Source: Acidimicrobiia bacterium
GTDB taxonomy: Bacteria; Actinomycetota; Acidimicrobiia; Spongiisociales; ZC4RG35
Assembly: GCA_965203555.1 (NCBI GenBank)
Contig: CBDBCY010000004.1
Location: forward strand, 1,696,001 to 1,760,000
Direction: 5' to 3'
DNA: 64,000 nucleotides
A model generated the notes under the pieces. That model did no database searches. It saw only the letters and a list, made by a program, of their open reading frames with translations, and was not told the origin of the DNA. Both the position numbers and the translations under genes were made by a program. Positions 45,336-63,124 of this stretch are shown here, piece after piece. Position 1 is the first letter of the stretch. Every line of letters begins with the position of its first letter.

Positions 45336-46427
45336 TCATCCGGGAACGACCACGGTGCGGATCGCCGAGTTTGACTCCAGGTTCTCAAAGCCCTTCTCCA
45401 TGTCGGAAAGCGGGATGGTGTGGGTAACCATGACGTCGAGGTCAAGGCTGCCCAGTTGGTAGAGGGAGTCCAGCACCGGGAAGTCCTGGGCCGGTATCCC
45501 CTCTCCGCCGTGGGTGGTCATCAGGGTGGAGGTGTTGCGAAAGAACGCCGACGGGTTGAGATCGGTCTCCGAACCCACCGGGGGAACGCCGATCAGGGTG
45601 GCGACTCCTCCGTAGGACAGCATCCCCAAAGCCTGCTCCAGGGTGGCGCCCATCCCAACCGCCTCGAAGGAGAAGTCCACTCCCTCGCCGTCGGTGAGAG
45701 CCCGCACCGCCTCGACCGCGTCTTCTTTGGCCGAGTTGACCGCGTGGGTGGCGCCCATCGACAACGCCCACTCCAGCTTGAGGTCGGAGATGTCCACCGC
45801 GATCACCTTCGAGGCGTTGGCCATCTTGGCGCCCTGGACCGTGGCAAGGCCGATGCCCCCGCAACCGATCACCGCGGCGGTGGCGCCGGGCCACACCTTG
45901 GCGGTGTGGAAAACCGCCCCGGTACCGGTCATCACCGCACATCCGAGCAACGAGGCGGACGTCAACGGCATGCCGTCGCTGACGGTGAAGGTAGCGCCCG
46001 CGTCCACCCCGATCCGCTCGGAGTACATCCCCAACCCCATGGGCACCTCCACCCTGGATCCGTCGGACGCCAACGAGACCGTCGGAGCGCGCGGCGAGGA
46101 ATTATTGCACCGCCGGGGATCGTTGCGCCGGCACATCGAGCATGATCCGCACGGGACCCGGCAGCCCACCGCCACCCGGTCGCCTTCCTTCAGGCGTGTC
46201 ACGCCCGAACCCACCTGCTCCACCACCCCGGCGCCCTCGTGGCCCAGCAACATGGGATAACGAGGCGCCCGCCCCGACTGGAGGCCCTTGGAGACCTTGT
46301 AGTCGGTCCGGCAGACCCCGGCCGCTTCCATCCTGAGGATCACTTCCCCCTCTCGGGGAGGGTCGAACTCGATGTCCGCAATCTCGATCCGTCCCGGAGC
46401 AGTCACCAGGGCTGCTCGGCTATGCAT
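45336..46427 (-). CDS. Zn-dependent alcohol dehydrogenase (class III/formaldehyde-dehydrogenase-like)
   Basis: GVCRTD, LLGHEGAGVV, CGSCSMC...C, LLGCAVMTG, IGCGGIG. Confidence 0.9.
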   Translation of the reverse strand: MHSRAALVTAPGRIEIADIEFDPPREGEVILRMEAAGVCRTDYKVSKGLQSGRAPRYPMLLGHEGAGVVEQVGSGVTRLKEGDRVAVGCRVPCGSCSMCRRNDPRRCNNSSPRAPTVSLASDGSRVEVPMGLGMYSERIGVDAGATFTVSDGMPLTSASLLGCAVMTGTGAVFHTAKVWPGATAAVIGCGGIGLATVQGAKMANASKVIAVDISDLKLEWALSMGATHAVNSAKEDAVEAVRALTDGEGVDFSFEAVGMGATLEQALGMLSYGGVATLIGVPPVGSETDLNPSAFFRNTSTLMTTHGGEGIPAQDFPVLDSLYQLGSLDLDVMVTHTIPLSDMEKGFENLESNSAIRTVVVPG

Positions 46428-47586
46428 CCAGATCCACCAGGATGTCTTCGTCGTAGGTGAGCCTTTCCCCGCCGTCGGGGGTTACTCGCACGTTGTCGGA
46501 GAGACAGATCCCCCCTACCGCCAAACCCTCATCCGGATCGTCGAAGCTGATCTGGGGGTGAAGGTTGATCACCATGTCGGTCTGCATGATGCGATCCTTA
46601 CCCGGCACCCAGGGAGGCTCATGCGAGTCGAGTCCGATGCCGTGGGCGGTGTAGTTCACCGAGTCGAGCCCACCCTGACCCCACTTGCGGTGCACCCGGT
46701 CGCGGGCGGCCAGCACCTCTGTGGAAGAGTCGCCGGTTTTCATCGCATCTATGCAGGCATTCAGGGTCTCCACCCGGCTCTCCCAGAACCGCAGGATCTG
46801 ATCGGAGGGACGCCCGAAGCTGTAGGTTCTCCGCACTTCCACCCAATAGCCCGACGGGCCTCCCCACTCCAGGTCTATGCAGATAACATCGTCCCGGTCG
46901 ATCTCGGCGTCCATCCCGAAGGTGTAGGCCCGGTAGGGGGGACGGCTCATCTGGGCTATCCCGTCCAGGCACCCGTACTGACGGCACAGACGATGAGCCT
47001 CGGCCAGCACATCCCGCTCGATCGCCCCGGGACGGATGTGACCCTCCAGGCTGGTGAAGACCTGGGCAATGATCCGAGAGGTCTCCCGCAGGTTCTCCAT
47101 CTCTTCGGCGCTTTTGATCGAACGAATGTCATCGAAGAAATCGGTGGCGTCGATCAACGCGGCGGTCTGCCCGAAGGCGCTCTGGAACTGCATGTAGTGA
47201 GCAGCGGAGGTTATGTCGGCCAGTCCCACAATTCCGATGGTCCCGCTCGATATGCCGTGGTCCGACAGGATTCCGGCGATCTCGGTCGCCGGGGTCTGCG
47301 TGGCGCGAAAGTCCTGGATCCAGTTGACCAGGGCCACCCGCGAAAGGCCCCACAGCGGGTCGCCGATGAAAGTCGGTTCGCCTTTTTGGGGAAGCACCAC
47401 CATCCCCCAACCGGCCCATTGGAAGACGTCGCTCACATACTGCACGCGGCCCCGTACGAACTCGTCGCCGCGGCTGCAGATGATCAGTGCATCGATCCCC
47501 GACTCGGCCATGGCCTCGCGCAGCACGCGATGGCGTCGTTCCCGCTCGGCGGGGGAAGAAATGTGGGTCAGTTTGCCTTCAGCCAT
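46420..47586 (-). CDS. M24 (creatinase/prolidase-fold) enzyme, paralog A
   Basis: Creatinase-type N domain; IKSAEE, IDLEWGG, GYWVEVRRT, AHGIGLDSHE, NLHP; AAGGAG before ATG 47586. Confidence 0.85.
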   Translation of the reverse strand: MAEGKLTHISSPAERERRHRVLREAMAESGIDALIICSRGDEFVRGRVQYVSDVFQWAGWGMVVLPQKGEPTFIGDPLWGLSRVALVNWIQDFRATQTPATEIAGILSDHGISSGTIGIVGLADITSAAHYMQFQSAFGQTAALIDATDFFDDIRSIKSAEEMENLRETSRIIAQVFTSLEGHIRPGAIERDVLAEAHRLCRQYGCLDGIAQMSRPPYRAYTFGMDAEIDRDDVICIDLEWGGPSGYWVEVRRTYSFGRPSDQILRFWESRVETLNACIDAMKTGDSSTEVLAARDRVHRKWGQGGLDSVNYTAHGIGLDSHEPPWVPGKDRIMQTDMVINLHPQISFDDPDEGLAVGGICLSDNVRVTPDGGERLTYDEDILVDLDA

Positions 47587-47600
47587 AGTCTCAACTCCTT

Positions 47601-48329
47601 TTAGCTGCTCGGTGTAGGCACGGAGGCCGGCCTGTAAGGGGCGGATGGTTGGGGGTTTTCCAGTTCTTCGCATATCTCGTCAGTGGTCCGGGAGGCGATG
47701 AAACCGCCGTCGGTCATCCTGACCAGAGCGTTCTCATGAAGGTCCTTGGTGGAAGAGGTGCAGGCGTCGTTAACCAATGTCACGGTGTAGCCCTGATCGG
47801 CGGCGTCGCGGGCGGAAAGCTCCACGCAGCCCTCGGTGACAATGCCGGTGAGAACCAGGTTGGTGATGCCCATGCGGCGCAGGACATTGTCGATGGCGGT
47901 GGTGCTGAAGACGCTGGCGGAGGTCTTGGTGAAGATCATCTCGTCACCCTGGGATGCAACTTCGGGCAGGAGGTCGTCGTCGAAGGGCTCCCGGGCCACC
48001 GGCTCGAGATCGGCGGTCGGCATGAAGGCCTTCCCCGCGTCCCGTCCGTCGGAGGTCCGATACCCCACCCGCACGTGGATTACCTCCTCGCCCGCTGCTC
48101 GAAAGGCATCCTGGCACCTTCTCACGTTGGGCAGGATGCCGTTGATGTTGTCCCAGCGCTCCTGCATGAGTTCGGGCCGCCCGGCAGCGGCGGCGATTCT
48201 TCCTATCCAGCCATCGACGTGCGCATCCAGATACTGCAGGTCAATGGTCAACAGGGCGGTCTTCCCCGGCGCCACGGAGGGGAATGACCGGCGGGGGAAC
48301 AGATCGTAAAAGGGGTCGTGCAAGTTCAA
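47601..48329 (-). CDS. Isochorismatase-family cysteine hydrolase
   Basis: D-K-C triad in TIDLQY, FTKTSASVF, TEGCVELSARDA. Confidence 0.88.
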   Translation of the reverse strand: MNLHDPFYDLFPRRSFPSVAPGKTALLTIDLQYLDAHVDGWIGRIAAAAGRPELMQERWDNINGILPNVRRCQDAFRAAGEEVIHVRVGYRTSDGRDAGKAFMPTADLEPVAREPFDDDLLPEVASQGDEMIFTKTSASVFSTTAIDNVLRRMGITNLVLTGIVTEGCVELSARDAADQGYTVTLVNDACTSSTKDLHENALVRMTDGGFIASRTTDEICEELENPQPSAPYRPASVPTPSS

Positions 48330-48519
48330 TGTCTTCAGCCTTCCTCGGTACTGGCCGGTGCGTGCAAAGGAGGCCGGCCTGCGCCACAGAACCGCCTCCG
48401 GTTCGCACTAAGTATATTTAGCAGAGATTTGACCAACCGTGGCGCCACGGAACCGTCATAATCCAACACAAAATGCCGAGCCTGGGCGTCCGCGCAGGAG
48501 AAGGGAACTGGACAGCGAG

Positions 48520-49452
48520 ATGAGAGTACTGGTGACAGGAGCGGGGGGATTCTTCGGAAGAGCGCTGGTCCGGGCCTTCGCTCGGGGGGGAGATCAGGTG
48601 GCGGCGGCGGACATCCTTTCGCCCGAGGACTTTGCCCCCCGTTCAGGCGCCCCCCGCGGCAGCGTTGAATACGTGGTGCTGGATGTGGCGGACCCGGCGG
48701 CCTGGTCGACCGACGTCACGGGCCCGGTGGACGGGATCGTCCACGCCGCGGCGTTGACGCCCAGTATCCAGGAGGCGCGGGAGGACCCGTCCAAACTGGT
48801 GAAAGTCAACCTGATCGGAACCCTCAACGCCCTGGAGTTCGCCAGAAAAGAGAACGTGGGCAAGTTCCTGTTCATCTCCTCCGCCGGGGTCTACAACCAG
48901 TTCGAAGAAGAAGTGCTCACCGAGGAAGACGCCGACGGCGGTTTCTCTCTGTACGGCTCCGCCAAGCTGGCCGCCGAGATCATGCTGTATCGCTACGCCG
49001 ACATGTTCGGCTTCGACGCAGGGGCCATCCGTCCCACCTCCATGTACGGTCCGGCCGAGGAGTTCCGAAACACCCGCCCATTCGTCACCCAGGCCAAGCA
49101 ACTGGCCGATGCCGCCATGGACGGAGCGCCGGTACGGGTGATCGGCCTGGAGGACCGTTGCGACTGGGTGTTCGTGGACGATGTCGCCGAGGGCGCCCAA
49201 CGGTTCTTTTCCGGGGAGATGGGAAGTCGCTCTTTCGCCTTCTCGTCAGGAAACCCCATCCCGTTCCAGGATGTATTGGACGCAGCCGTGGCGTCGTTCG
49301 GCGTGGTGGTGGATCCCGACGCCGAAATGCTCATAGACGCCACACCGGACCGGGCCACCACCATCTCCTGCGACAAGGCCAGAACCGAACTCGGCTGGAA
49401 CCCGGTCGGTATAGCGGAAGGCATGCAGCGCTACGCCGATCTGGGCGGCTGA
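48520..49452 (+). CDS. NAD-dependent epimerase/dehydratase (extended SDR)
   Basis: VTGAGGFFG, HAAA, SSAGVY, YGSAK. Confidence 0.88.
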   Translation: MRVLVTGAGGFFGRALVRAFARGGDQVAAADILSPEDFAPRSGAPRGSVEYVVLDVADPAAWSTDVTGPVDGIVHAAALTPSIQEAREDPSKLVKVNLIGTLNALEFARKENVGKFLFISSAGVYNQFEEEVLTEEDADGGFSLYGSAKLAAEIMLYRYADMFGFDAGAIRPTSMYGPAEEFRNTRPFVTQAKQLADAAMDGAPVRVIGLEDRCDWVFVDDVAEGAQRFFSGEMGSRSFAFSSGNPIPFQDVLDAAVASFGVVVDPDAEMLIDATPDRATTISCDKARTELGWNPVGIAEGMQRYADLGG

Positions 49453-49518
49453 GTTTCAGCGCAGACTTTCAACCCGACCTGACAGAACCAACCCCGAAGC
49501 CTCAGATATGGAGTCCCA

Positions 49519-50715
49519 ATGAGCCAAAGCACACTGAGATCAGCGCTAGCCGAGCGCACCCTGCGCATTCGCGGCGGCCACGAGTCACCCTATTTCCAGA
49601 TAATGCGGAAGGTCCAGGACCGTGACGACATAATCCGCCTGGTGAGAGGAGAGCCGGATATACCGACTCCCTCCCACATCGTAGAAGCCGCCAAGCGCTG
49701 CCTGGACACCGGTCACATCGGCTACACCCCTCCGGGAGGCATGATCGAGTTGCGGGAAGCCATTGCCCGCAAGTTCAAGAAGGACAACAACCTTGAATAC
49801 GACGCCGAGTCGGAGATTCTCGTTACCGCCGGGGCCCAGGAGTCGATGGCGGTCAGCCTCCAGACATTGCTGGATCCCGGTGACGAAGTCCTGCTGGCGA
49901 CTCCCCACTACATGGCCTATCCGGCCAATATCACCATGGCGGGGGGACACATCGTATACGTCCCCACGGTCGAGGAAGAAGACTTCGAACTGAAGCCCGA
50001 AGCCATCGAGGCGGCGATCACCGACAGGACCAAGCTGTTGGTGCTGGTCACCCCCAACAATCCCACCGCCGGGGTAATAACCGAGGAGACCCTGCATGCT
50101 ATCGCTGAGGTAGTTCGGGCGCATCCCGGTCTGGTGGTGATCTCCGACGAGTTGTACGAGAAGGTGGTCTACGACGGCTTCGAGCACATCAGCTTCGCCA
50201 CCCTGCCGGACATGTGGGACCGCACCATCACCATCAACGGGTTCTCCAAGGCCTACAGCATGACGGGATTCCGGGTGGGCTACATGGCCGGTCCGGCCGA
50301 CTACATCCTGGCCGCCACCGAGCCAAGACACTCGCTGAGCATCTCCACTTCGCTTCCTTCCCAGCACGGCGCACTGGCCGCCTTGGAAGGACCGCAGGAC
50401 TTCCTGGATGAGATGATGGAGGAGTATCACCATCGCCGGCAAGTTATGAGGGAGACCTTCGACAAGCTGGGCGTCACCTACGGAGAGCCCAAGGGCGGGT
50501 TCTACTTTTTCGCCAACGTATCAGGCTCGGGGATGGATGCCGTCTCCTTTGCCGACAAGGCGGTTGATTACGGCATTCTCTTCTCGCCCGGCAACATCTT
50601 CGCCGAGGGCGCGGTCAAGTACATTCGCATCTCGTACCTGGCGCCGAGGGACCAGCTGCACGAAGCCATGGATCGCTTCACGCGCCTGTGGAACGACTGC
50701 CGGAGCGGCAAGTGA
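49519..50715 (+). CDS. Class I/II PLP aminotransferase
   Basis: GEPD, PNNPTA, SDELY, NGFSKAYSMTGFRVG. Confidence 0.92.
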   Translation: MSQSTLRSALAERTLRIRGGHESPYFQIMRKVQDRDDIIRLVRGEPDIPTPSHIVEAAKRCLDTGHIGYTPPGGMIELREAIARKFKKDNNLEYDAESEILVTAGAQESMAVSLQTLLDPGDEVLLATPHYMAYPANITMAGGHIVYVPTVEEEDFELKPEAIEAAITDRTKLLVLVTPNNPTAGVITEETLHAIAEVVRAHPGLVVISDELYEKVVYDGFEHISFATLPDMWDRTITINGFSKAYSMTGFRVGYMAGPADYILAATEPRHSLSISTSLPSQHGALAALEGPQDFLDEMMEEYHHRRQVMRETFDKLGVTYGEPKGGFYFFANVSGSGMDAVSFADKAVDYGILFSPGNIFAEGAVKYIRISYLAPRDQLHEAMDRFTRLWNDCRSGK

Positions 50716-51689
50716 GCAGTCCCACCGTAGCCCTGGTAGAAGAGTTCACGCCCGCCCAGATTGCCACCCTGCTGAAAGCCCTCCCCGATGGCGCCACGCT
50801 GCTAACAGACGCCCTCGGTTCGGGATTGATAGGCCGGGCCGATTACCTGGTGCTCCGTGAGCAAACCTTGGATGACAACCAGTTGAGTGCCCTCTCCTCG
50901 CTGCGGGGAGTGGTCACCATCGACTCGGGAGGCGCCACCGTCTCATCGGAGATCTGCGACTCCCTGGGAGCGTGGACCGAAGGCGTCGTGTCTCCCGGGC
51001 CGACCAGTGTGGCGGAACACACCGTGATGATGATCCTGGCGCTCTTCAAGCGCTTGCCGACCGCCAACCAACGCTTGATGGACGGGGTGATAGTGGAAGG
51101 CATGGCGCCGTTCGTCACCGACCAGTTGAACTATTCCTACAACTGGGTGGGCCTGGAGCTATTCGAGGCGGTGTTGGGCAAGACAGTGGGGCTGGTCGGG
51201 GTCGGCCAGATCGGACTGGTGGCGGCCAGGCTGCTGGTGGCGTTCGGAGTGGATGTGGTCTATTACAAGCGCAACCGCTTCACCCCCGAGGAGGAACAGG
51301 AGTTGGGCATCCGCTACCTTCCCTTCAACGAACTCCTGGCAGAGTCCCACTGCGTATCGCTCCACAACAAGTTCACACCGGAGACCGAGAAGATGATGGG
51401 CGCCCGCGAGTTCGCCATGATGCCCAGGGGTTCGTTTTTCGTCAACACCGCCCGCGGGCGGTTGGTGGATGAGGATGCCCTGATGGCTGCCCTGCACAGC
51501 GGGCATCTGGCCGGCGCCGCCCTGGATGTCTTCTGGTGGGAGCCCATCCTCCCGGACAGTCCTCTCCGGAATACTCCCAACCTGTTGATGACGCCCCATA
51601 CCGCCGGGACTCCGGCAGGCGATAACGTGGCCCTGGAACTGGGCTCCGCCGGAAGGGTGATCCGCCGGCGGCACGGCTTGGCGAGATGA
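50712..51689 (+). CDS. D-isomer-specific 2-hydroxyacid dehydrogenase
   Basis: SVAEH, GVGQIG, VNTARG, LDVFWWEP, TPHTAG. Confidence 0.88.
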   Translation: MSSPTVALVEEFTPAQIATLLKALPDGATLLTDALGSGLIGRADYLVLREQTLDDNQLSALSSLRGVVTIDSGGATVSSEICDSLGAWTEGVVSPGPTSVAEHTVMMILALFKRLPTANQRLMDGVIVEGMAPFVTDQLNYSYNWVGLELFEAVLGKTVGLVGVGQIGLVAARLLVAFGVDVVYYKRNRFTPEEEQELGIRYLPFNELLAESHCVSLHNKFTPETEKMMGAREFAMMPRGSFFVNTARGRLVDEDALMAALHSGHLAGAALDVFWWEPILPDSPLRNTPNLLMTPHTAGTPAGDNVALELGSAGRVIRRRHGLAR

Positions 51690-53068: not shown

Positions 53069-53099
53069 TCCTCTTCTCAACAAGAAAGGAAACCTAACC

Positions 53100-55800: not shown

Positions 55801-55816
55801 CATCCGGTAACCCGTC

Positions 55817-56847: not shown

Positions 56848-57870
56848 CTACGGACTCAAGGCACCTTTCCGCCAGGCGGCGATGTAGTTCATGCAGAATT
56901 CGTCCCGGCCCAGCAGGACGTCCTCGGCCATCCGATAGGGCTCTGAATCCCGGTCGGCGGCGAGAACATCGGAGAGCGGATTCATCACCGGATCGATGAT
57001 GCCGCTGTCGGCGCCGGCCTCGACCGTCAAGTTGATAAAAGCGGCGTTCATCAACTTGCGGGCCGGGATCCCGAAGGAGACGTTGCTCATACCGCCAGTG
57101 ATGTTCATCTCGGCGCCGAAGCGGCCGCGGAGGGTTCGAATGGCGTCGAGAGTGTGCAAGCCGAAGCTGCTGTCCACCGATATGGGAAACACCAAGGGAT
57201 CAACAAAAATGTCGCCGAGATCCACCCCGGCAGCCAGGGCCGCCTCAACCATGCGGGAGGCGTTGGCGACCCGTTCGGCGGCATCGGAGGGCATGCCTTC
57301 CCCTCCGGCCGCGGTGACGATCACCCGCGCTCCGTATTCCACGGCCAGTTGCACTGCTTCGGTGCGTTCCAAGGACGCCGAGTTGAGCAGCGGCCGGCTA
57401 TCCCCTCCGACGGCGGCGGCGAGACCGGTCTCGATGACCGATATGTCGGAAGAGTCCACCGAAATGGGAAGTAGGGTCAACGACCGCACGTAACCCACCA
57501 GCCAGGCCATCGCCCGGCGCTGCTCGGCGGTCTTGAGCGAGATCTCATCGACATTGACGTCCAGGTAGTGGGCCCCGGCGCGTTCCTGGTCGAGGACCAC
57601 CCGGCGCAGGTACTCGTAACCGGTGTCGGCGTCCGCCCCTCCGGCCATCGCCGCCTCGACCGCCAGGGCTATGTGCTTTATTCGACCCTCCCTGTAGGCC
57701 TGGCTGGCGCGCATCGACTCCGAGATCGGCAGTAACCCCGGTTCGCCGTCCTCCGAAACGAATGTGACTCCGTCCACCCCGTCCCGGGTGTCGAACCGTT
57801 TTCCCTTCCGAAGGACGATCCGGGTGGTGTGGACGTTCTCACCGATGAGGGTGAAACGTTCTGCGGTCAT
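56848..57870 (-). CDS. Methyltetrahydrofolate:corrinoid methyltransferase (pterin-binding, AcsE/MetH-like)
   Basis: LIGENVH, LDVNVD, ISVDSS, LLNSAS, FVDPLVFP, GGMSNVSFG. Confidence 0.88.
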   Translation of the reverse strand: MTAERFTLIGENVHTTRIVLRKGKRFDTRDGVDGVTFVSEDGEPGLLPISESMRASQAYREGRIKHIALAVEAAMAGGADADTGYEYLRRVVLDQERAGAHYLDVNVDEISLKTAEQRRAMAWLVGYVRSLTLLPISVDSSDISVIETGLAAAVGGDSRPLLNSASLERTEAVQLAVEYGARVIVTAAGGEGMPSDAAERVANASRMVEAALAAGVDLGDIFVDPLVFPISVDSSFGLHTLDAIRTLRGRFGAEMNITGGMSNVSFGIPARKLMNAAFINLTVEAGADSGIIDPVMNPLSDVLAADRDSEPYRMAEDVLLGRDEFCMNYIAAWRKGALSP

Positions 57871-59546
57871 GCGCCCACCAGCTGGGCCTTCGATTCCACC
57901 CCGGCAAAGGTAGCGGGCATCGGCTTGAATTGACAACCCTCCACGAAGATGTCGAAGAAGTCCGGGGTGGTCTCCAATTCGATGTGGGTCACCGACTTGG
58001 TCAACTCCTCCGCCCAGCCCCGCTTTCTTTCGGACAACAACAGAGAACGGGCGCCCTCCACCGCCGCATTGCCCGCCTTCACCACCCGCTCCTCCGGCAC
58101 CGGCGCGATCAGACCGATGTCGATCGCGTTCCCCACATCGAGATAGGTGGCGAATCCCCCTGCCAGATAGAGTCGTTCGATGTCGGCCGGTTGCACCCCG
58201 GCGTTTCTCATCACGATGAACTGCCCGCAGTAGTTGGCGGCTTTGGCCTGGGCAAGGTTGCTGGCATCTTCTCGCGAGAAGGTGATGCCGCGCTCGGGCA
58301 CCACTTCGATGGCGAACCGCTTGCGATCGCGGGTAAAGGCGCTTCGTTCGGTCATAAGACCTCGGCGGCGGAGTTCCGCCAGGATGTCCACCAGGCCCGA
58401 GCCGCAGATCCCCACCGCAGGTTCTCCCCCGATGGTCTCATACGAGACGGCCGTACCGTCCGCCGATAGGCGGATCGACTCGATGGCGCCGTCGTAGGCG
58501 CGCATCCCGTAGGTGACCAGGCCGCCCTCGAAGGCCGGACCGGCCGGGCAGGAAGCGGCCCACATGCGGCCGTTGTGGCTGACAATCACCTCGGTGTTGG
58601 TTCCCATGTCCACCAGCATCTCCGTCCGTCCCCCCTCTCCCAGTTGGACCGTCTCCAGGCACGCCACCGCGTCGGCGCCCACATGGCTGGCCACCAACGG
58701 TATCCCGTACACCTTGGCCCGGCGGTTGGCCCGCAACCCCAGGGTTCTGCTGTCCGCCAAGAGCGCCGTATGGGGCCGCTGTCCGGCCAGGTATTCGTGC
58801 TCTGTCAGGGACTTGTAGGGCATTTCCCCGATGCTCTGCACGCTGAGACCGAACAGGATGTCGCGCATGGTGGAGTTGCCCGCCACCACGATCTCATATA
58901 CTGTCGGAGGACGTCGACCCGCCCTTCGGCACAGATCCCGGGTGGCCTGGTTGATGGCCGCCACCACCGCCTTGCGCAACTCGTTCGCCACTTCGGTACG
59001 GGCCTCGTAGGAGATCCGGTGCATCACGTCGCTTCCACCAAACTGCTGAGGGTTTTCGAAGCTCGCCACCCCCAGAGTCATGCCCGTTTCCAGGTCCACC
59101 AACTCCACCACCACCGTGGTGGTGCCCAGATCGATCGCCAAGCCGCAAATGGACCGCCGGTACCGGTCCACAACCGTATCCCCGTACCTGACCTTGTCTC
59201 CCGCTCGGGTCACGGCCGGACGGAACTCGGTGGGTCTCCCATGGTCGTAGCGGCTGCTCTCTACGATCCTCGGCCGCCTCCGAAGCGGGGAAAACCTGAT
59301 GGACGGGCCGTCTCGCATCACCTGCGCCTGGCATGCCAAGCGATAATTGCCCCGAAGGTACTGCTCGTTTTCGGTCCTCTCCACCAGTGCTTCCATCCCC
59401 TGGGTGATCTCCACCACGCATTCGTGGCACTCGCCGTTGCGCAGGCACGAGGTGGCTACCTCGACTTCGAGTTCGTCGGCGTAGTCGAAGATGGTCTTGC
59501 CCGCCACCTGGGGGCGGGCTCTGTCATCGTGGGAAACGGTGCTCAC
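57867..59546 (-). CDS. Reductive activator of corrinoid proteins (RACo; 2Fe-2S plus ASKHA ATPase)
   Basis: SCLRNGECHEC...RLACQ, IDLGTTT, GSDVMHRI, VDMGTNTE, AGPAFEG, GICGSG, LAGGF, GNAA. Confidence 0.9.
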   Translation of the reverse strand: MSTVSHDDRARPQVAGKTIFDYADELEVEVATSCLRNGECHECVVEITQGMEALVERTENEQYLRGNYRLACQAQVMRDGPSIRFSPLRRRPRIVESSRYDHGRPTEFRPAVTRAGDKVRYGDTVVDRYRRSICGLAIDLGTTTVVVELVDLETGMTLGVASFENPQQFGGSDVMHRISYEARTEVANELRKAVVAAINQATRDLCRRAGRRPPTVYEIVVAGNSTMRDILFGLSVQSIGEMPYKSLTEHEYLAGQRPHTALLADSRTLGLRANRRAKVYGIPLVASHVGADAVACLETVQLGEGGRTEMLVDMGTNTEVIVSHNGRMWAASCPAGPAFEGGLVTYGMRAYDGAIESIRLSADGTAVSYETIGGEPAVGICGSGLVDILAELRRRGLMTERSAFTRDRKRFAIEVVPERGITFSREDASNLAQAKAANYCGQFIVMRNAGVQPADIERLYLAGGFATYLDVGNAIDIGLIAPVPEERVVKAGNAAVEGARSLLLSERKRGWAEELTKSVTHIELETTPDFFDIFVEGCQFKPMPATFAGVESKAQLVGA

Positions 59547-59884
59547 CGGTCGTCGGTCTCCCCGCGCCGGCCTCTCCGCCTCTGTTCGGCGTCTCGCCTG
59601 ATCCGCACGATCCTCTCCCGGGTCCGCTTCACGGCGCGCGGGTTCGACTCCCAGGCGGTCCGATAGTCGAAGACGCCGTCATGACCGCAGGCCAGATCAT
59701 CCGGATCACCATCGGTCACCGGGAGTTGGTTACGGCAACGGAACAACGCCGTGCACAGGTCGAAACGGTTGCGGTAGGGGCAGCGGGTGAGCGACTGCTC
59801 CTCGGCGTGAACAACGATGTCGGAGAAAATGGCGGCCATCCGGTCGAGTCGCTCCTGGAAGGCCTGCATCTCCGATTCGGACAT
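59543..59884 (-). CDS. Small Cys-containing hypothetical protein in the methyltransferase operon
   Basis: 113 aa; CPY-x6-C-x5-C...C; stop overlaps the RACo start. Confidence 0.72.
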   Translation of the reverse strand: MSESEMQAFQERLDRMAAIFSDIVVHAEEQSLTRCPYRNRFDLCTALFRCRNQLPVTDGDPDDLACGHDGVFDYRTAWESNPRAVKRTRERIVRIRRDAEQRRRGRRGETDDR

Positions 59885-59894
59885 CGTCCCCTGC

Positions 59895-60650
59895 TCAGTA
59901 GACCTCTACGGCAAGTTTCTTGGCCAACTCCACACAGGCAAGGGCGTCCTTGCCGTAACCGTCGGCGCCCACATCCATGCCGAACTCGGGAGTCACCGGA
60001 GCTCCTCCCACCATGAAACGCACCCCGTCCCGCAATCCGATGTCCTTGAACGCCTCCACCGTCTTGGCCATGTTGGGCATGGTGGTGGTGAGCAGAGCGG
60101 ACATGCCGACTATGAAAGCCTGGTTCTCCTGCACCGCGGCGATGAACTCGTCGGGTTTGGTGTTGACGCCGAGGTCTATGACCGTGAAACCTCCGCCTCG
60201 CAGAAGCATGATGCACAGGTTCTTTCCTATGTCGTGCAGATCCCCCTGAACGGTGCCCATGATCACCGTGCCGATCGGCTCCACCCCCGAGGCGGCCAGG
60301 ATCGGCTCGATGTGCGCCATTCCGGCTTTCATCGCCCGGGCGGAGATGAGCACTTCCGGAACGAAGACGTAACCCTCACGGAATTTGATTCCGACGATCC
60401 CCATACCGGCGATCAACCCGTCGTCCATGATCTCCAGAGCGCCCACCCCGTCGTCCAGGGCCTGCCTGGTGAGTTGGTCCACGGTGACCATGTCACCATC
60501 GATGAGGGCTGCGGCAATGTCCTGCATGAGCGGCGAGGCGCGGCTGAAGACTGCGATGGTCCTCTCGATCTCTTCGGGTACCTCGAGAAACTCCTCGATC
60601 TCCTCGCGGATGAACTCGTTGGCAATGTCAGATAGTCGGTGCATCAGCAA
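59895..60650 (-). CDS. Corrinoid (B12-binding) protein
   Basis: GLIAGMGIVG, FVPEVL, GDLHDIGKNL (DxHxxG), SALLTTT, VGGAP. Confidence 0.93.
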   Translation of the reverse strand: MLMHRLSDIANEFIREEIEEFLEVPEEIERTIAVFSRASPLMQDIAAALIDGDMVTVDQLTRQALDDGVGALEIMDDGLIAGMGIVGIKFREGYVFVPEVLISARAMKAGMAHIEPILAASGVEPIGTVIMGTVQGDLHDIGKNLCIMLLRGGGFTVIDLGVNTKPDEFIAAVQENQAFIVGMSALLTTTMPNMAKTVEAFKDIGLRDGVRFMVGGAPVTPEFGMDVGADGYGKDALACVELAKKLAVEVY

Positions 60651-60651
60651 A

Positions 60652-61701
60652 TCATATGTCAGGTTGGTCTTCGTGGACGACGAGCCGACCGTCGGGCCGG
60701 TGGCCGTTGGAGTAGTCCCGGGCGGAGTCGGTCAATGCTCGAAGGACTTCCATCTTGGTCCCGAGCGGCACGGAACCTTCGGGAGCGATACCGTTGACCC
60801 CGGCCTCCAACACCTTCATGCAAGCATCGTAGGTGTCCTCATAGGTACCGCTGAACAGGGTGGTGGGATTGTTGATGTTGCCCATCAGGGACATCCGATC
60901 TCCGGTGATCCGCTTGGCGACATAGGGATCCACCTGGGACTCGAAGTGGAAGCAGTCCCAACCCGCCTCGGCGAAATAGTCGATCCGGTCGGTGGTCTCG
61001 CCACAACAATGGAAGATGCTGGGTCCGCCCATCTCCACGGTTACCTCTTTGTGCATCTCGAGGAGGAAATCACGGTAGGTCTCCGGGCTGACCAGTTCCC
61101 GGTTGGCGTGGTCGGCCCACATGATGGCGTCGGCGCCCGCCTCCAACTGCGCGTGGGCGGACATCATGCAGGCCGGCAGCATCACTTCCAGGTAACGGCG
61201 GATCTTGTCAGGATCCAAAATGGTGTCCATCAGATAATTCTCGATCCCAACCAGGTGATATCCGACCGACCAGGGTCCGTACACCTTTCCGACGATCCCA
61301 ACATCGGGGTAGCGTTTCCGAAGCAGCCTGATTGCTCCCAGCACCGCCTGGAATGATTGTCGCTTCAGATAATCGGATGGGATCTTGAAGTCTTCGGGAT
61401 CAGTGAGCACATGGTCGCTGGTGGCCGGCCAGTTGTCAACGGTGCCCCACCAGGTGGCGGCATCCAGGGCGTCTGCTTCCAACTGGGAATGGAATACCGG
61501 CATGATCGTGTCGAGACCCAACTCCTCGTAGGCGGTGGCCGCCAGGCGAGCCATCTTCTCCGCATCCAGATGCGCTTCGGGAAACCACGCGTCCGTAATC
61601 TCCATCGCTTCCAGGGTCACCACCGAACTGAGCGTCATGGCAGGTACCTTGTCCACCCGTCCCCCGTACAGCGCCGAAAGGAAACGGCGACGAGGAGTCA
61701 T
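60652..61701 (-). CDS. MtaA/CmuA-family (UROD-fold) methyltransferase
   Basis: MTPRRRFLSAL, AHLDAEKMA, GPWS, AGAD, FHCCG, FHFE, GNIN; GGAGAG before ATG 61701 (the frame extends to 61791). Confidence 0.85.
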   Translation of the reverse strand: MTPRRRFLSALYGGRVDKVPAMTLSSVVTLEAMEITDAWFPEAHLDAEKMARLAATAYEELGLDTIMPVFHSQLEADALDAATWWGTVDNWPATSDHVLTDPEDFKIPSDYLKRQSFQAVLGAIRLLRKRYPDVGIVGKVYGPWSVGYHLVGIENYLMDTILDPDKIRRYLEVMLPACMMSAHAQLEAGADAIMWADHANRELVSPETYRDFLLEMHKEVTVEMGGPSIFHCCGETTDRIDYFAEAGWDCFHFESQVDPYVAKRITGDRMSLMGNINNPTTLFSGTYEDTYDACMKVLEAGVNGIAPEGSVPLGTKMEVLRALTDSARDYSNGHRPDGRLVVHEDQPDI

Positions 61702-61960
61702 CCACTCTCCGGTCAGCCGGGTGAAATTCTCACCCTTGAGCTTTATCTTTGCAGGAGAAATGGCAAGTCCTTTCCACAGTGGCCTCACCAAGTGAGGGCA
61801 GGGGTTTCAGGAGATTTTCCCAATAAGAATACCGCCAGTTGACGGCGGCCGTGCCTTCGGCGGGAAACGAATTCGCTTTCAACCGTGTTCAACAATGTTC
61901 CCATACCCGCTCCAACTAGTATCGGCTCAAAGTCAGCGTCTGAAACAAGGAGCGCCAGCG

Positions 61961-63124
61961 ATGACACAAGTCCCAGTAAACCACATCACCTCGGATGCCG
62001 AGCGTGCTCGGCGATATGCCGCCCTACGAGAAGCCATGGCCGGCGCGGGTATGGATGCTTTTGTCATCTGCAGCCGCGGCGACGAGTTCGTACGGGGACG
62101 CGTCCAGTACGTAAGCGACATTTTCCAGTGGGCGGGACGCGGATTTGTGGTTCTTCCCATGAAGGGAGAGGCCATTTTCGTGACCGATCCCCTGTGGGGT
62201 ACCGGGTTCGCAATGCAGGGCATGTGGCTCAACGACTACCGCCAGCCCGACGACGCCGGCACGGAGATCGGATCGATCATCTCCGATCTGGGTCTGTCCA
62301 ACGGCACCATCGGGATAGTGGGCCTGGCCGACATAACATCGGTGGCCGACTACAACAGCATGAAGGTCTCGATGCCCAACGCCACCCTGGTGGACGCCAC
62401 TGACCTGTTCGACGACGTGCGGGCCATCAAGAGCCAGGAGGAGATCGACACCACTATCCACACCGGAAACATCATTCGCCGGGTATTCAGCGCCCTGGAG
62501 GCAGAGATGCGGCCCGGAGTCCAGGAAGTGGACGTGCTGTCAGAGGCCCATCGCCTCGCTCGCCAGTTGGGGTGTCTGGAGGGGATCGCCCTGATGGGTC
62601 GGGCGCCTTTCGCGTGCTTCGGGCCGGGAACCAACGGCGTGATCGAGAAAGACGATGTCATCGTGATCGACCTGGAGTGGGGAGGCCCAATGGGATACTG
62701 GGTCGAAGTTCGCCGGGTGTACAGCTTCAAGCCTCCCACCCCTGAACAGAAGGCTTTCTGGGACCTGCGGGTCGAGAGTTTCGAGGCGTGCGTCCAGGCC
62801 ATGAAGGCCGGAGAGTCTTCTGAGACCATCCTCGATGCCCGCGATCGGGTTTACGATGAATGGGGCTATTCCGCCATGGGCGCCAACTCCTACACTGCCC
62901 ACGGCATCGGCGTCGACTCCCTGGAGCCGCCCTGGGTGCCCGGCAAGGAGCGGATCATGCAGGAGAACATGATGATCAACCTGCATCCGGCCATCGGCTT
63001 CTCGGATCCCCAAAAGGGCGCCATGCTGGGCGGCATCAGCTTGGCCGACAACGTCCTGGTCGGGCCCGACGGAGGAACCCGCATGGTGGACCAGAAAGAC
63101 GAATGGATCGTGCTCGACGCCTAA
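61961..63124 (+). CDS. M24 (creatinase/prolidase-fold) enzyme, paralog B
   Basis: Shares ICSRGDEFVRGRVQYVSD, IDLEWGGP, GYWVEVRR, YTAHGIG, EPPWVPGK with paralog A; AAGGAG RBS. Confidence 0.87.
   Translation: MTQVPVNHITSDAERARRYAALREAMAGAGMDAFVICSRGDEFVRGRVQYVSDIFQWAGRGFVVLPMKGEAIFVTDPLWGTGFAMQGMWLNDYRQPDDAGTEIGSIISDLGLSNGTIGIVGLADITSVADYNSMKVSMPNATLVDATDLFDDVRAIKSQEEIDTTIHTGNIIRRVFSALEAEMRPGVQEVDVLSEAHRLARQLGCLEGIALMGRAPFACFGPGTNGVIEKDDVIVIDLEWGGPMGYWVEVRRVYSFKPPTPEQKAFWDLRVESFEACVQAMKAGESSETILDARDRVYDEWGYSAMGANSYTAHGIGVDSLEPPWVPGKERIMQENMMINLHPAIGFSDPQKGAMLGGISLADNVLVGPDGGTRMVDQKDEWIVLDA

Follow-up and report, generated by a model that had tools for sequence, protein, structure and literature searches.

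According to the available part of PMC13222342, known demethylases share one gene set, comprising a substrate:corrinoid methyltransferase (MT I), a corrinoid protein, a second methyltransferase (MT II) and an activator; the MT I enzymes are UroD-superfamily proteins, with relatives that act on aryl methyl ethers or haloalkanes, and the MT II type falls in one group with AcsE and MetH. MtgBCD provides a precedent for corrinoid methyltransferases working in aerobic marine bacteria, and some marine bacteria have methionine synthases split into modules, with a common corrinoid protein and a pterin module that works in both directions, as the accessible portion of PMC12478193 describes. Here, we analyzed a block of genes (45336..63124) that places a corrinoid operon beside hydrolases and redox enzymes, within a 64,000-nucleotide stretch of DNA from a sponge-associated Acidimicrobiia bacterium (the window).

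Gene content of the block

We found that all genes listed for the block by the initial annotation are present as ORFs, and that Pfam and NCBIfam uphold their family assignments (Table 1). This holds for at least five putative C-N hydrolases (M24A, M24B, IsoC, AmhX and CycAmh), for the close relationship of the two M24 paralogs (56% identity over 407 residues) and for a five-gene corrinoid operon (56848-61791, minus strand) divergent from M24B (61895-63124, plus strand). No block enzyme reached an NCBIfam equivalog cut-off; the MtaA-like protein is a marginal exception, on a subfamily model (NF004889, 244.3 bits against a cut-off of 244; TIGR01463, 235.2 against 235.4). Since the GC content of the block (0.59-0.65) is the same as that of the remainder of the window, its description as an island, in the sense of a recent horizontal acquisition, is not supported. 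The conserved neighborhood reaches left to the AtzE-like amidase and RidA genes.

The block itself contains no importer; among the ABC systems of the window are one PnrA-type and two Peripla_BP_6-type. Elsewhere, the window encodes two amidases, a CN-hydrolase, a xanthine-dehydrogenase-like enzyme and homogentisate-pathway genes. Because homogentisate 1,2-dioxygenase and an FAD monooxygenase are among the enzymes encoded in the window, the host uses O2.

Table 1. Features in and around the block, in order of position.
Feature	Position	Strand	Basis
AtzE-like amidase-signature amidase, conserved left arm	41306..42715	-	Pfam Amidase, 336 bits
RidA (L-PSP) family protein, left arm	43811..44200	-	Pfam Ribonuc_L-PSP, 94 bits
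DUF4160 + DUF2442 pair, toxin-antitoxin-like cassette	44257..45206	-	Pfam
Zn-dependent alcohol dehydrogenase (ADH), class-III-like	45336..46427	-	Pfam ADH_N + ADH_zinc_N
M24A, Creatinase_N + M24 hydrolase, D-E-H-H-S	46420..47673	-	Pfam, ligand columns
IsoC, isochorismatase-type cysteine hydrolase	47601..48329	-	Pfam, 119 bits
SDRepi, NAD-dependent epimerase/dehydratase-type SDR, first core gene	48439..49452	+	Pfam Epimerase, 127 bits
Class I/II (aspartate-aminotransferase-fold) PLP aminotransferase	49519..50715	+	Pfam, 223 bits
D-isomer-specific 2-hydroxyacid dehydrogenase	50688..51689	+	Pfam 2-Hacid_dh_C, 173 bits
UNK460, 460 aa, core signature gene	51686..53068	+	Fold prediction
AmhX, cog1228-type amidohydrolase	53040..54344	+	Pfam Amidohydro_1
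CycAmh, allantoinase/hydantoinase-like cyclic amidohydrolase, last core gene here	54385..55800	+	NCBIfam, PDB
o102 + o201, small ORFs with hydrophobic C-termini	55817-56125, 56122-56727	-	3' of corrinoid operon
MeTr, pterin-binding methyl-corrinoid:THF methyltransferase (MT II)	56848..57936	-	Pfam Pterin_bind, 81 bits
RACo-type reductive activator (2Fe-2S + ASKHA ATPase)	57867..59546	-	Pfam Fer2, Raco_middle, RACo_C_ter
o113, small Cys-rich conserved protein, 113 aa	59543..59884	-	Orthologues in 10 loci
Corrinoid protein (B12-binding_2 + B12-binding)	59895..60650	-	Pfam
MtaA/CmuA-family (UroD-superfamily) methyltransferase, presumed MT I	60652..61791	-	Pfam URO-D, 192 bits
M24B, second M24 hydrolase, D-E-H-H-A	61895..63124	+	Pfam, ligand columns
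VapC/VapB toxin-antitoxin pair, right edge	63221..63916	-	PIN / TIGR00028, 124.6 bits; RHH_1

A conserved core and its accessory hydrolases

We compared the window with 80 fetched loci: 29 related loci from sponge/coral Acidimicrobiia / Ca. Spongiisociaceae MAGs, the nearest to the window (UNK460 identity 86-98%), and 51 loci from other phyla that hold UNK460. Linkage of the corrinoid, M24 and IsoC genes was counted over 24 assessable related loci. What the analysis establishes is gene presence, family and fold assignments, synteny statistics and active-site patterns. The core, on the plus strand, runs SDRepi, aminotransferase, D-2-hydroxyacid dehydrogenase, UNK460, AmhX and CycAmh; because all six genes keep this order and orientation in 27/29 related loci (contig ends cut the core in the other two), the arrangement exceeds chance.

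The aminotransferase reached no NCBIfam equivalog cut-off, and the best matches of the D-2-hydroxyacid dehydrogenase, all under cut-off, were glyoxylate/hydroxypyruvate reductase types. AmhX scored 207 bits against the Caulobacter-type Xaa-Pro dipeptidase (cut-off 500) and matched PDB entries 3feq, 3be7, 3mtw and 4c5y; its relatives are prolidases, Arg-carboxypeptidases and ochratoxinase of the cog1228 type. CycAmh scored 301.7 bits against NCBIfam allantoinase (cut-off 357.85), and its PDB matches were allantoinase 3hm7 (221 bits) and L-hydantoinase 1gkr (211 bits). Beyond the core, o102 and o201, the latter with a tandem repeat (66 bp x 4.2, 56202-56476), had no match in any of the 80 fetched loci and are probably outside the system.

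UNK460, listed by the initial annotation as an unknown protein, indeed had no match in Pfam, NCBIfam or PDB sequence searches, but its predicted fold is glycoside-hydrolase-like. With the AF2 model (pLDDT 88.9, pTM 0.89), Foldseek returned Cwp19, PgaB GH153 (PgaB-C) and GH42 beta-galactosidases at probability 1.0; the TM score to Cwp19 (GHL10) was 0.67 on target length, and the atlas placed the protein in a GHL10 cluster with a score of 0.96. Among 40 distant relatives, 13 gave weak GHL10/GHL6 matches, one of them over the GHL10 cut-off; a GH31 C-terminal domain scored over its cut-off in one distant relative, and a second has weak, sub-threshold matches to a GH2 N-terminal domain. Homologues also occur in a Parabacteroides SusC/SusD locus and in Granulicella, where GH127 and aminopeptidase P are neighbors in the cluster. 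Together, these results identify UNK460 as a GHL10-like TIM barrel; its family is large (1564 representatives after clustering at 50%) and unnamed. By inspection, there is no obvious Glu at the strand that bears the clan GH-A nucleophile, and UNK460 may thus be no hydrolase.

Dormibacterota and Chloroflexota have altered versions of the core. In the Dormibacterota locus L035, one cluster holds IsoC, SDRepi, the 2-hydroxyacid dehydrogenase, UNK460, two AmhX and CycAmh; GFO/MocA oxidoreductases, aminotransferases, GntR and a binding protein of the SBP_bac_5 type accompany them. Among six fully annotated loci from other phyla, a GntR/FCD regulator was present in five, GFO/MocA genes adjoined UNK460 in four, and an SBP_bac_5 binding protein occurred in four, three of which had adjoining ABC permease genes. 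AmhX-like genes and CycAmh-like genes (at least 40% identity) were each found in 12/51 non-Acidimicrobiia loci. The partners of the core in other phyla are sugar oxidoreductases and an Opp/Dpp-type importer.

Close to the core stand the M24 genes, with an M24 of the D-E-H-H subfamily inside 23/24 assessable loci. The metal-ligand columns read D-E-H-H-(A/S/G) in 119/119 subfamily sequences and D-D-H-E-E in three canonical M24 proteins (of L012, L068 and the Granulicella plasmid, all among the fetched loci); the subfamily's metal ligands are remodeled. M24A and M24B, which have D-E-H-H-A/S ligands, are not canonical prolidases, and they are not creatinases either. M24A likely starts near 47586 and M24B, whose homologues are 385-388 aa long, at 61961. 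M24B is divergent from the MtaA-like gene in the three loci that show that end (the window, L017 and L027). It is attached directly to the core in 12 loci without corrinoid genes, which weakens the earlier view that the M24 pair brackets the block.

In the ADH-M24A-IsoC arm, IsoC (14/24 assessable loci) is nearest to biuret hydrolase (6xjm, 60.9 bits, versus 34.7 to N-carbamoylsarcosine amidase 1nba), and the solved cysteine hydrolase 6xix has Asp, Lys and Cys at the same aligned positions. The best NCBIfam match of ADH was mycothiol-dependent formaldehyde dehydrogenase (297 bits, cut-off 513), and the amidase scored 320 bits against the AtzE family, below the cut-off of 461. In type-A loci, orthologues of the amidase are found to the left of ADH, and RidA orthologues (87-91%) adjoin the amidase in 13 loci. 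A phosphoribosyltransferase gene holds the DUF4160/DUF2442 position in 11 related loci, and the cassette was apparently inserted at that site; a 5'-nucleotidase-like gene occurs in seven loci.

The corrinoid module and its linkage to the core

The module is complete, with candidates for MT I, corrinoid protein, MT II and RACo. The corrinoid protein contains DxHxxG, read as 'GDLHDIGKN', and scored 202 bits against the MtgC-type model (cut-off 370); MeTr scored 190 bits against the methyl-THF:corrinoid methyltransferase domain (cut-off 259). In o113, four Cys and one His are invariant among orthologues, and the nearest atlas clusters are all 'hypothetical'. Capture of the methyl group on THF, as initially proposed, is plausible: every part that would carry a methyl group from a substrate to THF is present.

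We found the module beside the core in 9/24 assessable related loci (nine species), besides the window, always in the arrangement with the ADH-M24A-IsoC arm. It is absent within ~7 kb in the other 15, one of which (L019) retains an o113 remnant; the chromosome of L015, without the module at its core, probably carries an MtaA-like gene (87%) elsewhere. In a tree, the module-plus-core arrangement falls on both sides of the sponge-clade root, and the adjacency is probably ancestral. The corrinoid operon occurs in 0/51 UNK460 loci of other phyla; in L034 there are just RACo and DUF1638, at a distance of 5.5 kb with unrelated genes in between. Linkage of the corrinoid operon to the core is thus facultative, and the single pathway proposed by the initial annotation finds only partial support.

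Four loci without the corrinoid operon (L012, L013, L023 and L026) carry a betaine-homocysteine S-methyltransferase (BHMT) operon downstream of the core (371 bits, cut-off 338). In L012, the sole BHMT locus with ORFs read, this minus-strand operon points toward the core, which is the orientation of the corrinoid operon in the window. Because the module persists in nine species and a BHMT operon lies downstream of the core in four other loci, the word 'facultative' may understate how closely methyl removal belongs to the pathway.

A three-unit reading and its rivals

We propose that three units of differing evolutionary persistence make up the block as a mosaic, the third being facultative, and we give this reading as a whole a probability of roughly 0.55. 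In it, every catalytic step, the direction of methyl flow and the substrate class are inferred. Unit 1, the core, most likely dismantles a small imported glycoconjugate with amide or ureide bonds: UNK460 would split off the sugar, AmhX and CycAmh would open or cleave the amide/ureide part, the aminotransferase and 2-hydroxyacid dehydrogenase would convert a released amino acid to a 2-oxo or 2-hydroxy acid, and SDRepi would handle the sugar or alcohol moiety. Unit 2 (M24A, M24B, IsoC, Zn-ADH, AtzE-like amidase and RidA), which is tightly linked to unit 1 within the sponge clade, would supply accessory hydrolases for further nitrogen release. In unit 3, the MtaA/CmuA-type enzyme would move a methyl group from an O-, N-, S- or halide-methyl donor to the corrinoid protein's Co(I), from which the pterin-binding enzyme would pass it to THF, and RACo would re-reduce oxidized cobalt. 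This unit may take the methyl group off methylated members of the same substrate class, and would not be obligatory.

A glycoconjugate fits better than a simple methylated ureide or guanidine, because UNK460 is glycoside-hydrolase-like and the core, in other phyla, goes with sugar oxidoreductases and an importer of the Opp/Dpp type. Leads to its class conflict: the 5'-nucleotidase-like gene, phosphoribosyltransferase, AtzE-like amidase, IsoC and CycAmh point to a nucleoside/ureide-like compound, whereas a glycopeptide-like one is indicated by M24, the cog1228 amidohydrolase, Opp-type binding proteins and the hydroxyproline context in Granulicella.

It is possible, if doubtful, that the block is instead a hot spot of unrelated nitrogen-scavenging operons, with the corrinoid system acting on something different (methoxylated aromatics, methyl halides or methylated sulfur compounds, for example). 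The window is full of other C-N hydrolases and importers, the core flanks are rearranged again and again among relatives, and MT I relatives use aryl methyl ethers or haloalkanes (available part of PMC13222342). However, linkage of M24 and IsoC to the core is too consistent for chance, and IsoC, AmhX and CycAmh accompany UNK460 in Dormibacterota; only the corrinoid unit can therefore fit this alternative, and there it overlaps the three-unit reading.

We consider it unlikely that all sub-operons act on one methylated, N-rich compound, with the methyl group passing to THF and the remaining enzymes degrading the rest, as the initial annotation had it. The adjacency in nine related species and the window, the constant M24B/MtaA-like pairing and the non-homologous BHMT downstream of other cores are consistent with a single pathway; the module's absence from 15 of the 24 assessable loci and from the 51 loci of other phyla, and the probable separate location of the MtaA-like gene in L015, argue against one. 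In addition, the core and corrinoid operon are convergent and thus not co-transcribed, and the two divergent promoter regions have no 9-mer in common.

That the module works in reverse, as a split methionine-synthase-like methylase carrying methyl groups from methyl-THF via the corrinoid protein to a thiol or other acceptor through an MtaA-like Zn-type enzyme, is improbable, even though marine split methionine synthases with a bidirectional pterin module exist (accessible portion of PMC12478193). The module's surroundings are catabolic.

Least probable of all is a creatine/creatinine pathway (M24 as creatinase, the amidohydrolase as creatinine deaminase, CycAmh as N-methylhydantoinase, IsoC as N-carbamoylsarcosine amidase, and the module turning sarcosine into glycine and methyl-THF): the enzymes of that pathway belong to these families, so that each step has a family-level counterpart in the block, M24 combines a Creatinase_N domain with a non-canonical metal site, IsoC matches 1nba and hydantoinase A/B genes adjoin the cluster in L079, but the M24 profile gives 107 bits to prolidases and just 47 to creatinase 1chm, IsoC scores higher to biuret hydrolase, AmhX groups with cog1228 peptidase-like enzymes rather than cytosine/creatinine deaminases, nothing in the pathway accounts for UNK460, SDRepi, ADH or the sugar-type partners that the core has in other phyla, and no corrinoid-dependent sarcosine demethylase turned up in the papers surveyed.

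The closest solved relative of the MtaA-like protein is MtaA (4ay7, 157 bits), a methyl-cobalamin:thiol methyltransferase, and the protein retains the His-x-Cys part of the MtaA metal motif; both points favor the reverse direction. Against it, the protein's clade, with the motif H-C-C...E-G-S (81/118 sequences), has lost the third Cys, and the module's gene set is that of known demethylases, as given in the available part of PMC13222342.

Layout of the block and of related loci

By ORF listing and by Pfam and NCBIfam scans, we found every gene named in the initial annotation where it had been placed (see table), and its claim of a close M24 paralogue pair was borne out, since M24A and M24B are 56% identical over 407 residues. 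The core of the block consists of six plus-strand genes running from SDRepi to CycAmh, and includes UNK460, the 460-residue protein initially annotated as unknown. GC content shows no deviation in the block and is uniform over the whole window. The small ORFs o102 and o201 are matched in none of the 80 loci retrieved (the best 80 of 163); within o201, 4.2 tandem copies of a 66-bp unit (96% matches) code for a 22-residue repeat. At the position of these two ORFs, relatives carry a 5'-nucleotidase-like gene or nothing.

Features of the block and its flanks
Feature	Coordinates	Strand	Basis or setting
Zn-dependent alcohol dehydrogenase (Zn-ADH)	45336-46427	-	ORF, Pfam/NCBIfam
M24A (Creatinase_N + Peptidase_M24)	46420-47673	-	ORF, Pfam/NCBIfam
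IsoC, isochorismatase-type cysteine hydrolase	47601-48329	-	ORF, Pfam/NCBIfam
SDRepi, NAD epimerase/dehydratase-type SDR	48439-49452	+	ORF, Pfam/NCBIfam
Class I/II aminotransferase	49519-50715	+	ORF, Pfam/NCBIfam
D-2-hydroxyacid dehydrogenase (2HADH)	50688-51689	+	ORF, Pfam/NCBIfam
UNK460, 460 aa, without family match	51686-53068	+	ORF
AmhX, amidohydrolase	53040-54344	+	ORF, Pfam/NCBIfam
CycAmh, cyclic amidohydrolase	54385-55800	+	ORF, Pfam/NCBIfam
o102, small ORF, hydrophobic C-terminus	55817-56125	-	between core and corrinoid operon
o201, small ORF, hydrophobic C-terminus	56122-56727	-	between core and corrinoid operon
Pterin-binding methyltransferase (MeTr)	56848-57936	-	corrinoid operon
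RACo	57867-59546	-	corrinoid operon
o113, 113-aa ORF	59543-59884	-	corrinoid operon
Corrinoid protein	59895-60650	-	corrinoid operon
MtaA/CmuA-type URO-D protein	60652-61791	-	corrinoid operon
M24B	61895-63124	+	divergent from MtaA-like gene
HEPN-domain ORF and DUF4160/DUF2442 pair, toxin-antitoxin-like	42888-45206		left flank
VapC/VapB, toxin-antitoxin-like	63221-63916		right flank

Several other gene sets lie in the window. Two transposase genes (DDE_Tnp_1 and DDE_3 types) occupy 1488-3527 at its left end. A nucleobase- or nucleoside-looking set follows at 7085-19035, comprising an amidohydrolase, a molybdoenzyme of the xanthine dehydrogenase family that has a fused 2Fe-2S domain, the permeases, binding protein and ATPase of a PnrA/Bmp-type ABC importer, and a CN-hydrolase, and after it comes a phosphoribosyltransferase (20199-20837). 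The stretches 23170-29247 and 30008-35101 encode a Peripla_BP_6-type ABC importer, an amidase-signature amidase and then homogentisate-pathway genes, namely a fumarylacetoacetase-family protein, an FAD monooxygenase and homogentisate 1,2-dioxygenase. Because the last two enzymes are O2-dependent, the host evidently uses oxygen. A DegT/DnrJ/EryC1-type (sugar) aminotransferase gene (37932-39083) lies about 2 kb to the left of the extended block, whose leftmost gene is the amidase (from 41306), and a gene of the same family is also found inside the UNK460 cluster of a Dormibacterota locus, L035.

Related loci were collected by a genome scan that took 10-kb flanks and was driven by a profile built from UNK460 homologues. 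It gave 171 pattern matches, of which 163 encode a relative; the analysis uses the best 80 of these. Among these best 80 of 163, the 29 closest loci (86-98% identity) come from metagenome-assembled genomes titled Acidimicrobiia, Ca. Spongiisociaceae, Ca. Spongiisocius or 'bacterium', which, from their isolate names, we take to be sponge- and coral-derived. The remaining 51 belong to Dormibacterota, Chloroflexota (mostly Anaerolineae), one Propionibacteriaceae and one Armatimonadetes. Gene order and orientation of the core are kept in 27 of the 29 Acidimicrobiia loci, the other two (L011 and L023) being interrupted by contig ends.

The genes around the core follow two main arrangements. In type A, seen in 13 loci and the window, the core is flanked by a divergent arm of IsoC, M24A and ADH, followed by a phosphoribosyltransferase (11 loci), RidA and an AtzE-like amidase. 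The window retains RidA (43811-44200) and the amidase (41306-42715), and its left toxin-antitoxin-like cassette, with the DUF4160/DUF2442 pair, sits at the site of the relatives' phosphoribosyltransferase gene. In the 12 type-B loci, M24B immediately precedes the SDR gene and shares its strand, with a cupin and a CN-hydrolase further left, and the IsoC-M24A(-ADH) arm is found downstream in 3 loci. One further locus, L015, has the core alone. Among the 24 loci that we considered assessable, in which the core has 5.4 kb or more of sequence on either side, an M24 protein of the window's subfamily is present in 23 and IsoC in 14.

UNK460 and the hydrolases

A word-indexed search returned 354 homologues of UNK460, all called 'hypothetical' where named, and a profile search returned 1564 representatives at 50% clustering with E ≤0.001, 282 of them with E ≤1e-30. 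UNK460 has no Pfam match, the GHL10 model included, and a PDB sequence search with it gave 0 matches at E values up to 1. Its AF2 model (pLDDT 88.9, pTM 0.89) was matched by Foldseek, with probability 1.0, to Cwp19 (GHL10), the C-terminal glycosidase domain of PgaB, GH42 beta-galactosidases and GH164 in the PDB; the match to the (beta/alpha)8 barrel of Cwp19/GHL10 has an E value of 6e-11 and a TM-score of 0.67 on target length. Similarly, the ESM atlas places it with a GHL10-annotated cluster at 0.96, in which PF02638 occurs in 20% of the members. Of 40 distant relatives scanned, 13 gave weak GHL10 and/or GHL6 matches, one of them above the GHL10 cut-off; one relative carries a GH31 C-terminal domain above cut-off, and another gave weak, sub-threshold matches to the GH2 N-terminal domain. 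Residues E122, E184, K321 and R437 are invariant and lie at strand ends. The window protein has no predicted signal peptide and no N-terminal extension; in many relatives the match begins only at about residue 40-50, and one has a weak TAT-signal match.

Two annotated homologues are plasmid-borne. On a Parabacteroides distasonis plasmid (L081, 35%), a tandem pair comes after SusC/SusD genes and before a glycerate kinase gene. On the Granulicella tundricola plasmid NC_015057.1 (L082, 383202-404584), the homologue (31.6%) lies between a peptidyl-prolyl isomerase and aminopeptidase P, in a cluster with GH127, proline-racemase-family, FAD oxidoreductase, DHDPS-family, aldehyde dehydrogenase and GntR genes. 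We take this set to be that of hydroxyproline catabolism; GH127 enzymes act on hydroxyproline-linked arabinosides. From these results, we conclude that UNK460 is a predicted glycosidase-like enzyme acting on a glycoconjugate. Its family is real, conserved and uncharacterised, with a glycoside-hydrolase-like TIM barrel as judged from the model.

Outside the Acidimicrobiia, the partners of UNK460 were assessed by Pfam annotation of six loci and by tblastn maps. A GntR/FCD regulator occurs in five of the six annotated loci, an SBP_bac_5 (Opp/Dpp-type) binding protein in four, with adjoining ABC permease genes in three, and one or two GFO/IDH/MocA sugar-type oxidoreductases in four; in NCBIfam, these oxidoreductases come nearest to inositol, levoglucosan and glycoside-3 dehydrogenases, with scores that all stay under the cut-offs. 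Two further recurrent partners are an SDR epimerase-like gene and a class I/II aminotransferase. Across the 51 non-Acidimicrobiia loci in the best 80 of 163, the aminotransferase is found in 29, AmhX-like genes in 12 and CycAmh-like genes (at least 40% identity) in 12. L035 carries the string IsoC, SDR, GFO, 2HADH, UNK460, two AmhX, GFO and CycAmh, with GntR, two aminotransferases and SBP_bac_5 nearby, and the Armatimonadetes locus (L068) has SBP5, two permeases, M24, AmhX and UNK460 in that order.

The M24 pair departs from the canonical metal site. In an alignment to Pyrococcus prolidase (1pv9), whose ligand numbering was used, and in a multiple alignment, the five metal-ligand columns read D-E-H-H-S in M24A and D-E-H-H-A in M24B, compared with D-D-H-E-E in the canonical M24 proteins of L068, the Granulicella plasmid and an Acidimicrobiia locus, L012. 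Every one of the 119 subfamily sequences examined, comprising the two window proteins and 117 database homologues at least 360 residues long, has the D-E-H-H pattern, and the fifth column shows A in 84, S in 31, G in 3 and a gap in 1. Hosts of the subfamily are marine and other Acidimicrobiia and Actinomycetota, and its members bear only generic names; the plasmid collection has no M24B match at 1e-20. Against the PDB, the subfamily profile scores 107 bits with prolidase 1pv9, 47 with creatinase 1chm, 45 with the ectoine hydrolase DoeA and 43 with 7yto. The prolidase-nearest profile and the conserved, altered ligands together indicate a prolidase-derived M24 subfamily with a remodelled, conserved active site. 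Three assignments for the pair were rejected: a canonical M24B prolidase or Xaa-Pro peptidase, as the ligands are not D-D-H-E-E; creatinase, as the profile is nearer prolidase; and ectoine hydrolase DoeA/EutD, with 49.8 and 42.4 bits against an NCBIfam cut-off of 613. The D-E-H-H subfamily is uncharacterised.

The other hydrolases are likewise placed at family level. The Asp-Lys-Cys triad of IsoC aligns with that of the solved cysteine hydrolase 6xix, and its nearest PDB entry is biuret hydrolase (60.9 bits), N-carbamoylsarcosine amidase scoring 34.7 bits; with 75 bits against the BiuH equivalog cut-off of 370, IsoC is therefore not a BiuH orthologue. AmhX groups with cog1228 amidohydrolases, which include prolidases, Arg/Lys carboxypeptidases and ochratoxinase. 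CycAmh comes closest to allantoinase and L-hydantoinase. We rejected allantoinase AllB as its identity (TIGR03178, 301.7 bits against a cut-off of 357.85), and its scores with hydantoinase and dihydroorotase models are similar. The amidase of the left arm resembles AtzE, below cut-off. Ureido and carbamoyl groups are typical targets of three or four of the families to which IsoC, AmhX, CycAmh and the AtzE-like amidase belong.

The corrinoid operon and its linkage to the core

All four canonical components of a corrinoid methyltransferase system were recognised with Pfam and NCBIfam. The MtaA/CmuA-like protein (MT I, UroD superfamily) scores 192 bits with Pfam URO-D, 244.3 with NF004889 (cut-off 244) and 235.2 with TIGR01463 (cut-off 235.4), and its nearest solved structure is MtaA (157 bits). 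The corrinoid protein has a B12-binding_2 cap (72 bits) and a Rossmann B12-binding domain (90 bits) in Pfam, with the DxHxxG motif present as DLHDIG. The pterin-binding methyltransferase (MT II) exceeds the cut-off of Pfam Pterin_bind (81 bits) and falls below that of the NCBIfam domain model (190 against 259), and the activator RACo has Fer2, Raco_middle and RACo_C_ter domains. The fifth product, o113, has four invariant Cys and one His in 11 sequences and is kept in all 9 related loci with the operon; it has no named relatives, and its nearest atlas clusters are all hypothetical.

Of 118 MT I sequences, 81, forming the window's clade, carry the motif H-C-C...P-E-G-S, whereas homologues from anaerobes (Neomoorella thermoacetica, 56% identity, and Thermoanaerobacterium) have H-I-C...P-E-C-A; thus the third MtaA-type Cys has been lost and a Cys gained beside the His. 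The MtaA-type motif functions in zinc binding. Sources of the clade, where named, are mostly soil, freshwater and marine Actinomycetota and Chloroflexota, and the plasmid collection yielded only 22-26% matches to the MtaA-like protein, for example CmuA. According to PMC13222342, the MT I proteins that act on aryl methyl ethers and haloalkanes belong to the UroD superfamily, MT II enzymes cluster with AcsE and MetH, and zinc is required in some such systems and not in others. PMC12478193 describes MtgBCD as a modular corrinoid/pterin system that works in both directions in aerobic marine bacteria. Given this precedent and the four components, the window module therefore belongs to a known type of system. 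We infer that methyl transfer would run from the substrate to THF, the direction initially proposed. An MtgBCD-type glycine betaine demethylase was rejected, as no MttB-family match was found by Pfam and NCBIfam among the 18 block ORFs scanned.

The linkage of the corrinoid genes to the hydrolases, on which the initial annotation had built one pathway for a methylated, nitrogen-rich compound, held in part: it is seen in the window and in 9 of the 24 assessable relatives, and not in the other 15 or in any of the 51 loci from other phyla (best 80 of 163). The nine (L003, L005, L017, L018, L020-L022, L027 and L030) are all type A and carry the operon convergent after the core, with a 5'-nucleotidase-like gene in between in seven. 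Of the remainder, L019 retains only o113, followed by M24B, and the other 14 have no corrinoid operon. The L015 genome probably carries an MtaA-like gene (P0132, 87% identical) unlinked to the core. In the other-phyla locus L034, RACo-like and DUF1638 genes lie 5.5 kb away, behind LysM and NUDIX genes. In a FastTree tree of UNK460 rooted on Dormibacterota, loci with the corrinoid operon beside the core fall on either side of the sponge-clade root, so that this adjacency is probably an ancestral state that was lost or moved several times.

These data fit best with a mosaic of units with a facultative, possibly substrate-variant-specific demethylase, a reading to which we assign a probability of about 0.55. 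That all units form one fully integrated pathway is unlikely. Such a pathway would account for the corrinoid-core adjacency kept in nine species and the window, and for the divergent MtaA/M24B pair in three of three visible cases. It would also agree with the betaine-homocysteine S-methyltransferase gene (371 bits against an NCBIfam cut-off of 338) found downstream of the core in L012, L013, L023 and L026. In L012, the one of these whose ORFs we read, that gene belongs to a minus-strand operon (15382-20892), in which it stands between a cog1228 amidohydrolase and a canonical D-D-H-E-E M24; the operon is convergent on the core, at the type-A site of the corrinoid operon, and the methyltransferase might substitute, non-orthologously, for the methyl-removal step. 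Next to this operon is an EutA-like gene of the arylmalonate-decarboxylase family. Yet the corrinoid link is absent from most relatives and all other phyla in the best 80 of 163 loci, and the core and the corrinoid operon are convergent. Moreover, the promoter regions lack a common motif, the divergent IsoC/SDRepi and MtaA/M24B regions having no common k-mer of at least 9 bases. A promoter and terminator scan of 44800-64000 (1 promoter-like and 12 terminator-like sites, against shuffle means of 3.8 and 10.7) was uninformative and gave no guide to operon borders.

Candidate substrates and likeness to known systems

For the substrate of the mosaic there are two conflicting leads, both tentative and about equally likely, and the remaining probability belongs to something else. 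A nucleoside- or ureide-like substrate is suggested by the 5'-nucleotidase-like gene (7 loci), the phosphoribosyltransferase (11 loci) and the ureide-type hydrolases, and by the PnrA-type ABC system, CN-hydrolase and xanthine-dehydrogenase-like enzyme also encoded in the window. A glycopeptide-like substrate is suggested by the M24 and cog1228 enzymes, the Opp-type binding proteins and the gene contexts seen in Granulicella and Armatimonadetes. A creatine/creatinine-to-sarcosine scheme matches at family level only and was rejected, as the sequence tests of M24, IsoC and AmhX failed.

A more specific scheme, which we consider quite improbable, combines these elements. An O2-using sponge symbiont would follow an undescribed pathway in which a host- or diet-derived methylated glycoconjugate is demethylated first by the H-C-C-type MtaA/CmuA corrinoid system, yielding methyl-THF, and is then dismantled by the GH-like family, the remodelled M24 enzymes and the ureide-type amidohydrolases; in sister lineages, betaine-homocysteine methyltransferase would replace the corrinoid step. 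Candidate substrates would be a methoxylated or methylated nucleoside, or an N-methylated glyco-amino acid.

Host-derived nitrogen-rich compounds are believed to sustain sponge symbionts, and few of the pathways are known. The block exposes a large unnamed GH-like family found together with peptidase-like and ureide-type hydrolases across several phyla, and an M24 subfamily with conserved D-E-H-H instead of the canonical dinuclear metal site. A complete corrinoid system in an oxygenase-encoding bacterium is also further evidence that B12-dependent demethylation is not restricted to anaerobes, and the identity of the methyl donor would reveal methylated metabolites passed from sponge to symbiont and add to the B12 demand of the holobiont. 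We found no published description of the gene block in the literature on sponge symbionts, Acidimicrobiia, corrinoid methyltransferases and creatinase/hydantoinase, and, as far as our literature searches reach, the association of the GH-like family and the D-E-H-H M24 proteins with ureide-type hydrolases is undescribed. The homarine pathway was rejected as a model, as the main text of PMC13236597 makes no mention of amidohydrolase, creatinase, isochorismatase or corrinoid; the main text of a paper on sponge methane cycling (PMC9999580) makes none of corrinoid, Acidimicrobiia or MtaA.

In comparison with known proteins, UNK460 shares its fold with GHL10/Cwp19, the PgaB C-terminal GH153 domain and GH42 (TM 0.63-0.68 on target length), but its sequence identity to them is just 9-13%. 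The M24 pair shares the Creatinase_N plus pita-bread M24 architecture with PepQ, creatinase and DoeA and is nearest, by profile, to archaeal prolidases, but scores far under the PepQ cut-off.

The corrinoid module has the same parts list as the four-component demethylases of anaerobes (the Odm/Mtv/Vdm O-demethylases, Mto and the chloromethane system Cdm) covered in PMC13222342. It differs from them in that its host encodes O2-dependent enzymes, its MT I is nearer archaeal MtaA than any other solved protein and belongs to a clade with H-C-C...E-G-S rather than H-x-C...E-C, and the operon adds the conserved Cys-rich o113. With MtgBCD and split methionine synthase, as presented in PMC12478193, it shares a corrinoid protein and a pterin methyltransferase with reductive reactivation in an aerobic marine bacterium. 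The best NCBIfam match of its corrinoid protein is the MtgC model (202 bits against a cut-off of 370), whereas its substrate module is UroD-type. Finally, as in hydantoinase-carbamoylase and allantoin/ureide catabolism, CycAmh lies beside removers of carbamoyl or amide groups (IsoC and the AtzE-like amidase). Unlike hydantoin utilisation operons, the window operon has no M20 or CN-hydrolase carbamoylase, and its cyclic amidohydrolase instead has a GH-like protein, an SDR and M24 enzymes as partners.
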